A DNA stretch of 64,000 nt. Source: a virus. Taxonomy: Duplodnaviria; Caudoviricetes. Every line of letters begins with the position of its first letter. Within the stretch, counting starts at the first letter, position 1. The notes beneath the pieces were generated by a model, which saw only the letters and a program-made list of their open reading frames with translations, was not told the origin of the DNA and made no database searches. Location: positions 96,001-160,000 of the IMG/VR virus record IMGVR_UViG_3300028603_000022, one strand, 5' to 3'. Positions 28,743 through 29,537 of the stretch are shown piece by piece. The position numbers were made by a program, and so were the translations under genes.

Positions 28743-28777
28743 GAGCCGGTAGTTCAGTGGCAGAACGTGGAACTTTT
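28743..28777 (+). pseudogene. 5' half of an interrupted tRNA-Lys
   Basis: GAGCCGG-TA-GTTC AGTGGCA GAAC-G-TGGAA-CTTTT, broken in the anticodon loop. Confidence 0.65.
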
Positions 28778-28780
28778 TTT

Positions 28781-28866
28781 GGACACGTATGCAAGCGGTC
28801 AAAGCGAAGGAACTTTTAATTCCTCGGCGAAAGCCTACGTGGGTTCAAATCCCACCGTGTCCTCCA
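28781..28866 (+). tRNA. tRNA-Lys(TTT) with long variable arm
   Basis: GGACACG/CGTGTCC, AGGAA-CTTTTAA-TTCCT, GGC-GAAA-GCC arm, GTGGG-TTCAAAT-CCCAC, T-CCA. Confidence 0.85.
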
Positions 28867-28926
28867 TGTTTTATTCGAACTCGAACACTAATTATTTCAT
28901 GGATTAATTCGAGTTCGAATAAAACA
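28867..28926 (+). promoter_or_regulatory. 19-bp perfect hairpin abutting the HNH start codon
   Basis: TGTTTTATTCGAACTCGAA/TTCGAGTTCGAATAAAACA; loop contains CTAATTATTT. Confidence 0.7.
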
Positions 28927-29490
28927 ATGAAAAAGTTTCATAAAATAAATGGGTATATATTAAGGTATAAACCTAACCATCCTAAAGCCTTTACTAAAGG
29001 TAAAGCAGGAAAGAACGGACACGAAGGTTATGTGTATGAGCACGTATTGGTGGCGGAGAAAAAATTAGGACGCCTTTTAGAAAAAGATGAAGAAGTTCAT
29101 CATCTAGACTTAGTTAGGTCCAATAATAGACCTAATAATTTAATAGTTATTCTTAAATCTGAGCACATGGCATTACATGCTTGGTTAGACAAAATAGGGT
29201 ATACATGTGACAACGTATCACATTTAGACAGGGAATACGAATGTATTCCTAGATGCGGATACTGTAAATTTCCTATAATGGATAAGCAAAAGCATTGTTC
29301 TAAAAAATGTCAACTCAAACATGTAGATAAAAAAATTGCGTAAAAAAAAGGCGGATAAAAATAAATTACATAAGTTGCTGTTAAAATATTCTTTTGTTAA
29401 AGTTGGTAAACTTCTGGACTTATCAGATAATGGGGTTAGAAAATACGCAATTAGATTGGGCTTAGACCCAAAGTATTACACACAATATAA
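28927..29490 (+). CDS. HNH homing endonuclease; C-terminal HTH lies in the +1 frame beyond stop 29343
   Basis: YVYEHVLVAE...EVHHLD..RSNNRPNNL; CxxC/CSxxC; A7 run then SFVKVGKLLDLSDNGVRKY. Confidence 0.8.
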
Positions 29491-29499
29491 ACGGGGTTG

Positions 29500-29537
29500 A
29501 TCGAAGGCCGAGGGTTCAAATCCCTCCGGGTTCACCA
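29500..29537 (+). pseudogene. 3' half of an interrupted tRNA
   Basis: AGGCC-GAGGG TTCAAAT CCCTC-CGGGTTC-A-CCA; pairs 6/7 with GAGCCGG at 28743. Confidence 0.65.

Follow-up and report, generated by a model that had tools for sequence, protein, structure and literature searches.

In the genome of an uncultured phage of ~174 kb, found in landfill metagenomes, an old tRNA-Lys(UUU) gene is interrupted at its anticodon loop by a cassette of ~720 bp that contains a complete second tRNA-Lys(UUU) gene and a gene for an HNH endonuclease. The locus lies in a stretch of 64,000 nucleotides (hereafter the window), which comprises bases 96001-160000 of the 173,848-bp, 96% complete virus contig IMGVR_UViG_3300028603_000022, and it most probably represents a decaying homing cassette, in which a tRNA-targeting HNH nuclease is coupled to a divergent tRNA of the same anticodon that takes the place of a ribozyme. 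An earlier note on this DNA had proposed a selfish element of this size that destroys a tRNA gene while supplying a same-anticodon substitute, a proposal now supported by a filled and empty pair of alleles among relatives of phage phiKZ, by eight further nested sites and by a close relative (L150) with an uninterrupted gene.

A tRNA-Lys gene split at the anticodon loop

The outer 5′ half runs from G1 through the D-arm and the anticodon stem to U34-U36 and stops at position 36, with three further T before the inner tRNA begins, and the orphan T-arm, acceptor strand and CCA ending at 29537 form one of only three T-arm-plus-CCA motifs in the 174-kb genome. The two outer halves pair at 6/7 positions in the acceptor stem, with one G-G mismatch and one G.U pair, and at 3/5 in the anticodon stem. 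These are the counts given in the earlier note, whose description of the 5′ half, of a separate complete tRNA-Lys, of a hairpin behind it and of an insert free of any intron core also agrees with our results, as we obtained no match to the group I intron model RF00028 in the window or the genome and found no group I core motif in the insert. The nuclease gene, which that note had ending at 29490, instead ends with a TGA stop codon at 29498-29500 in a second frame, abutting the 3′ half. The limits of the cassette are deduced, with the right boundary uncertain by a few bases. A tmRNA reading of the 3′ half was rejected, given an Rfam match of 20 bits against a cut-off of 47 that covered the T-arm alone. 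An integrative element at a tRNA gene was likewise rejected, as the insert encodes HNH alone and not an integrase, and the diverged inner and outer tRNAs form no direct duplication of the kind expected of att sites.

Table 1 Features of the split tRNA-Lys locus (positions in the window)
Feature	Positions	Strand	Basis
Outer tRNA-Lys 5′ half, positions 1-36, degenerate	28743..28777	+	sequence
Inserted cassette, ~720 bp (inner tRNA, hairpin and HNH)	28778..29499	+	tRNA numbering; outer-gene spans of homologous loci, 603-914 nt
Intact replacement tRNA-Lys(UUU)	28781..28866	+	ARAGORN tRNA-Lys(TTT); Rfam 52 bits
Hairpin, perfect 19-bp inverted repeat	28867..28926	+	-29.1 kcal/mol; fold z -7.85
TAATTC hexamer, candidate late-promoter motif	28905..28910	+	lies in hairpin 3′ arm
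HNH endonuclease N-terminal 138 aa, catalytic HNH_3 domain and Cys-rich segment	28927..29343	+	PF13392, E 4e-12
A7 and A8 runs at HNH frame change	29329..29349	+	sequence
Out-of-frame HNH C-terminal tail, helix-turn-helix-like	29336..29500	+	aligns with C-terminus of intact homologs
Outer tRNA-Lys 3′ half, ~position 39 to CCA, degenerate beside the junction	29500..29537	+	sequence

Complete and beginning at a 5′ end of its own, the inner tRNA is the sole intact tRNA-Lys in the genome. ARAGORN placed all three intact tRNA genes of the phage, for Leu(TAA), Met(CAT) and Lys(TTT), in this region and at low thresholds added only noise. The inner tRNA is class II-like, with a long variable arm, a 3-bp D-stem, U73 and an encoded CCA, and belongs to a recurring family of long-armed phage tRNA-Lys that includes the tRNA-Lys of Caulobacter phage CcrColossus. 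Long-variable-arm tRNA-Lys genes with TTT or CTT anticodons, mostly with U73, also occur in unrelated phages (L135:1506-1593 and L137-L141), their lysine identity being putative. Around the insertion point the inner gene shares 15/30 bp with the target, compared with 16/30 in phiKZ.

The Pfam assignment of the nuclease to HNH_3 is unambiguous, the conserved H/N residues are kept in the alignment, and the protein is 42-56% identical to homologs of 167-227 aa; helix-turn-helix families match the C-terminal region of one such homolog (P0005), weakly. The frame changes at A7 and A8 runs, which are two of only three A-runs of at least 7 on the + strand of the genome, and thus looks like slippage in unselected DNA. 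An assembly error is an unlikely cause, since the locus sequence, including the frameshift, is identical across every assembly retrieved, all from landfill metagenomes and possibly from source samples shared with the window. The window therefore carries a decaying copy of the cassette, which is probably immobile now.

The 19 nt immediately 5′ of the HNH start codon are paired inside the hairpin, and related hairpins lie upstream of the HNH gene in L011, L008 and phiKZ. In T4-like phages, hairpins over the ribosome-binding region confine translation of homing enzymes to late transcripts, and the start regions of segB, mobE and I-TevI are held in such structures (PMC2988022); by this analogy, the hairpin in the window is a probable brake on HNH translation. 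The hexamer TAATTC is positioned as expected of a late promoter that would free the HNH start codon, and it occurs upstream of 8/18 genes of the structural region versus 8/63 others; as the motif was picked after the fact, this is only a lead.

Nested, intron-borne and free-standing relatives of the nuclease

Homologs of the nuclease, gathered from proteins, viral contigs, metagenomes, genomes and isolated phages, occupy contexts of three kinds: nested as in the window, within a group I intron, and free-standing beside an intact tRNA. Nesting with a homologous HNH recurs at eight further independent sites, in genes for tRNA-Thr (L008 and L051), tRNA(CAT) (Met/Ile2; L011, L054, L060, L070 and L142) and tRNA-Asn (phiKZ/PA1C). 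All eight have 7/7 pairing of the outer acceptor, a complete inner tRNA (in L011 an Rfam match at 724-799) and spans of 702-914 nt, and they erode near the junction, as in the window. Where the outer anticodon survives, it is that of the inner gene (TTT in the window, CAT in L011 and L070, GTT in phiKZ), with near-matches in L008 (TGT with one extra T) and L060 (one base changed). In PA1C, phiHQ, L051, L054 and L142 the outer anticodon is lost while the acceptor is still paired, so that no spliced tRNA is possible there.

Nine homologs reside inside group I introns of tRNA(CAT) genes, with RF00028 matches of 43-80 bits and an insertion point after position 36 wherever the contig includes the 5′ exon; the same search, which finds cores at these intron loci, returned no RF00028 match in the nested cassettes. 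On the nuclease tree, the window HNH is sister, with 99/95 support, to that of L021, which is located directly behind a tRNA-Lys(TTT). The order of the cargo varies, as the tRNA lies 5′ of the HNH gene in the window and 3′ of it in L008, L070 and L158.

The clearest evidence of insertion comes from phiKZ, whose gp296, given in phiKZ papers as an HNH nuclease only, is a homolog of the window HNH with 38% identity. Between positions 36 and 37 of a phiKZ tRNA-Asn(GTT) gene lies a 774-bp insert with a 2-nt overlap, containing gp296 and a long-armed tRNA-Asn(GTT); in SL2 and W10-2, exactly these 774 bp are absent and the tRNA is intact. Among the records listed, 10 carry the phiKZ-type filled allele, 4 a filled allele at 82% identity and 24 the short allele. 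The cassette is shared at this site by phages just 82% identical there and is polymorphic among phages that are 97-99% identical. In a regional check of small numbers, PA1C and phiHQ, which have lost the outer anticodon, combine an intact 185-aa HNH with a neighbourhood free of any intact copy of the target; phiKZ and Brmt combine an HNH frameshifted in an A7 run with an intact second target copy 2 kb away; and 124.01 has a frameshifted HNH and no intact target copy nearby. Intact homologs start upstream of the annotated gp296 start (L012:2485-2510), and the A7 run in phiKZ shifts the frame a few codons in, whereas the reading frame of PA1C and phiHQ stays open for 185 aa. As a more doubtful alternative, the A7-run frameshifts in the window and in phiKZ could be slippage-tuned brakes rather than plain decay. 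At the other tRNA-Asn site, in OMKO1 (L132:2002-2134), a 5′ half and a long-armed tRNA-Asn remain, the HNH gene and the 3′ half are gone, and the leftover anticodon has changed to TTT, a possible end state of replacement.

The lysine site in related phages and the competing explanations

The window phage is remote from isolated large phages, with a clamp loader ~33% identical to theirs (for example, that of Rhizobium phage RHEph12), and its closest relative found, L150, has a clamp loader 90% identical. In L150 the syntenic site lacks an HNH and has one intact tRNA-Lys(TTT), immediately 5′ of a conserved 275-nt non-coding stretch that in the window follows ~290 bp behind the 3′ half, and the acceptor 3′ strand of this tRNA-Lys matches 6/7 letters of the window outer strand. 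In a second relative, L158 (79%), an unrelated HNH splits the Lys site at 6806-7408, accompanied by an inner tRNA-Lys(TTT) of class I; the orphan 3′ half there shares 23/28 positions with the window outer half from T-arm to CCA and 38/49 with the window inner tRNA. The three relatives of this clade thus show three different states at the Lys site, and the resemblance of the L158 orphan to the window inner tRNA suggests that the site has been replaced more than once. An alignment-based clamp-loader scan of viral contigs gave in addition L163, of the same phage type as L158, where a scan with a single protein gave nothing; the more distant relatives L161, L164 and L165 have no tRNA within the fetched flanks.

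These relatives bear directly on whether the two outer halves belong together. The earlier note had recognised that they might derive from two different neighbouring tRNA genes. In that case the cassette would have replaced what lay between, and the imperfect pairing of the acceptor (just 6/7) and anticodon stem (3/5) lends this some appeal, all the more as 3.7% of pairs of tRNAs with different anticodons reach 6/7 in the acceptor and the window outer 3′ strand is fairly promiscuous, with 15.7% of foreign 5′ acceptor strands fitting it at ≥6/7. Pairing alone is therefore moderate evidence only. By contrast, relatives carry one Lys gene, not two tRNAs, at the site; both halves bear the acceptor signature of phage tRNA-Lys(TTT) genes, with only 5/229 phage tRNAs supplying a 3′ strand that fits the outer 5′ half at ≥6/7 and 3/5 of these being Lys(TTT); and the other nested sites show the same junction-proximal erosion with 7/7 pairing. 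We thus consider a two-gene origin very improbable, and a chance origin is ruled out by the recurrence of the layout in other phages. No more tenable is a scheme in which the outer tRNA is still made by splicing or ligating the halves, the cassette acting as a novel non-ribozyme intron. Inserts encoding a possible tRNA in the tRNA-Thr of Lak phages were described as introns (10.1101/356790), and ARAGORN at a relaxed threshold still calls the rejoined halves a tRNA-Lys; against this, the insert has no group I core, searches of the phage genome for RtcB and the PF09414 RNA ligase found neither, the rejoined outer gene has three mismatched pairs, and the outer anticodon is wholly lost in homologous cassettes.

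A more serious competitor, though still an unlikely one, is a one-off scar, formed when a free-standing HNH cut the homologous tRNA gene in a different phage and ended up, together with the tRNA beside it, in that break through illegitimate repair; such a layout need not home as a unit. Target choice and dead halves are common to the scar and the homing cassette, which differ only in later mobility. Transposition-like insertions are known in T4-like phages (PMC2988022), the cargo order differs between the window and L008, L070 and L158, an unrelated HNH yields the same layout in L158, and nested forms require at least 4 changes on the nuclease tree, where they are scattered among free-standing forms. 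The presence of the phiKZ-group cassette at the same site across 82% identity, together with its polymorphism at 97-99%, fits spread by homing instead.

Several observations weigh against the homing cassette as we describe it. A single origin of the nested forms as one clade was rejected (AU p ~1e-50, with rows of partial or unknown context excluded from the groups of the clade test), and many homologs adjoin an intact tRNA without visible outer halves; because the nested forms are not one nuclease clade, nesting is a repeated outcome, a layout that arises or decays repeatedly, rather than a single element family. The D- and T-loops of the L150 tRNA-Lys differ from the window outer halves, which makes L150 a syntenic uninterrupted state and not an exact empty allele. 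The search for an empty allele called for by the earlier note thus succeeded in phiKZ kin and gave the intact syntenic gene of L150, but the exact empty allele of the window locus was not found: exact DNA patterns of both outer halves had no match in viral contigs, blastn against isolated phages, with the region or the 3′ half as query, returned generic tRNA matches only, and contigs of two DNA runs contained no joint and no variant, which does not amount to evidence that the empty allele is absent. Lastly, L150 has its own split gene, a tRNA-Met(CAT) at 1899-2731 interrupted by another HNH_3 gene, of 232 aa, that extends with its stop codon over tRNA positions 36-38, and no replacement tRNA was detected for it. 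Its counterpart in the window is intact (27613-27687). This split without a spare implies that these phages can tolerate tRNA loss and that a spare gene is not obligatory.

The surroundings of the locus contain further features of note. The conserved stretch behind the Lys site (window 29830-30105; L150:4982-5253) is 86% identical between the two phages, compared with 65-77% for neighbouring coding regions, has no Rfam match and is a candidate structured RNA. A conserved non-coding element of ~400 nt with a strong hairpin at its end (window 28336-28522, L150:2790-3200, L158:6405-6800) likewise has no Rfam match; only its 3′ part is present in the window, the element being longer in L150 and L158, and it is possibly an undescribed phage RNA, truncated in the window by the gene for a 210-aa orphan protein (27703-28335) with a 47% identical paralog (P0059) on the same contig. 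Inverted repeats flanking the tRNA-Leu(TAA) gene extend its acceptor stem (27507-27610; 22 bp, 95% complementary). A 361-aa open reading frame (23979-25064) has a weak match to the IS110-family Transposase_20 (E 0.002), and as L158 has a gene of similar size at the same place, it may be a domesticated phage gene.

A possible mechanism and its place among known mobile elements

Homing enzymes of the HNH type introduce a nick into one strand, and in mixed infections they are inherited in excess (PMC2988022). By extension, in a mixed infection the HNH of the cassette would nick or cut the uninterrupted tRNA-Lys of a co-infecting phage close to the anticodon loop; donor-templated repair would then copy the cassette in, with the tRNA halves and their flanks serving as homology. 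Insertion would inactivate the old tRNA gene and the spare gene would restore its function, so that what intron-borne relatives achieve by self-splicing the nested form would achieve by a second gene. The inner gene may escape cutting, as judged from its sequence divergence, since it agrees with the target at only about half of the 30 bp surrounding the junction, while the hairpin would restrain translation of the nuclease on long transcripts, as in T4. The outer halves, purposeless as RNA, would then erode outward from the junction, and the nuclease of the window phage would have become frameshifted after the cassette's arrival.

[quoted passage not shown] The likeness holds in so far as the HNH is free-standing, and the window gene shares with the T4 SegB, Seg and Mob enzymes a location outside any intron in a tRNA region, absence from relatives and a start held in a hairpin. 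The likeness fails in that this HNH family is also intron-borne and that the window gene lies inside its presumed target. Of the features that define free-standing homing endonucleases, a homing-type domain, the lack of an intron and absence at the relatives' site are all present, whereas the position is not intergenic. SegB is an intergenic GIY-YIG enzyme that recognises a T-loop motif; the window element has an HNH inside a tRNA gene, destroys that gene and carries a whole replacement. Cleavage by the free-standing enzymes described falls hundreds to thousands of bp away from the genes that encode them. Mobile group I introns in tRNA genes (RF00028) use the same anticodon-loop region and, at nine loci, the same HNH family; the cassette, by contrast, lacks the catalytic core (P3-P9), its exons decay, and function comes from a second gene rather than from splicing. 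The mobE gene in Aeh1 nrdA and mobA in T4 gene 60 are also HNH genes within conserved genes without an intron, and nrdA and gene 60 still function in pieces (PMC2988022). A tRNA cannot, hence the spare copy.

In its logic the cassette is closest to endonuclease elements of fungal mitochondria which supply a substitute for one end of a gene (Allomyces macrogynus atp6; Glomus atp6, atp9, cox2 and nad3; PMC3630166), where the native part is likewise orphaned. In the fungal case the outcome is a hybrid protein gene, in which a C-terminal piece is joined onto the native 5′ part (PMC3630166), whereas the window element carries a complete stand-alone RNA gene and abandons both native halves. The tRNA-Thr(TGT) 'intron' of Lak megaphages is similar in that one phage tRNA contains another and both filled and empty alleles occur; it was read as an intron of unknown kind, with no endonuclease mentioned (10.1101/356790), and may be what the same process leaves once the nuclease is gone. 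In a literature search largely outside subscription journals, we found no paper describing a cassette of a nuclease with a replacement tRNA.

A bolder idea, possible but rather doubtful, is that these elements are gene-drive-like 'tRNA swappers' that repeatedly overwrite a tRNA with a different isoacceptor and are favoured as escaping host anticodon nucleases. Lys(UUU), Thr(UGU) and Asn(GUU) are targets of PARIS/AriB (PMC12409363), and they are three of the four cargo types found. The split victim in L158 is itself a long-armed tRNA-Lys like the window replacement, which suggests successive rounds of replacement.

Homing endonuclease elements with a spare tRNA are widespread in phages; to these the window contributes a Lys(UUU) example whose cargo is long-armed and whose site shows signs of having been replaced repeatedly. 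Since tRNA scanners miss the outer halves, such elements go unannotated. The proposal lends itself to direct testing, as SL2 and other empty-allele relatives are in culture on a laboratory host, and so are phiKZ and PA1C. Carrying a duplicate of the entire gene represents a further way for a homing nuclease to hold a conserved target, beside the self-splicing intron, the intein and the distant intergenic site, and the use of a single tRNA position by one HNH family both with and without a surrounding intron bears on the origin of mobile introns. The process could also explain why phage tRNA genes turn over rapidly and have odd structures, and how the unexplained 'tRNA introns' of large phages came about.
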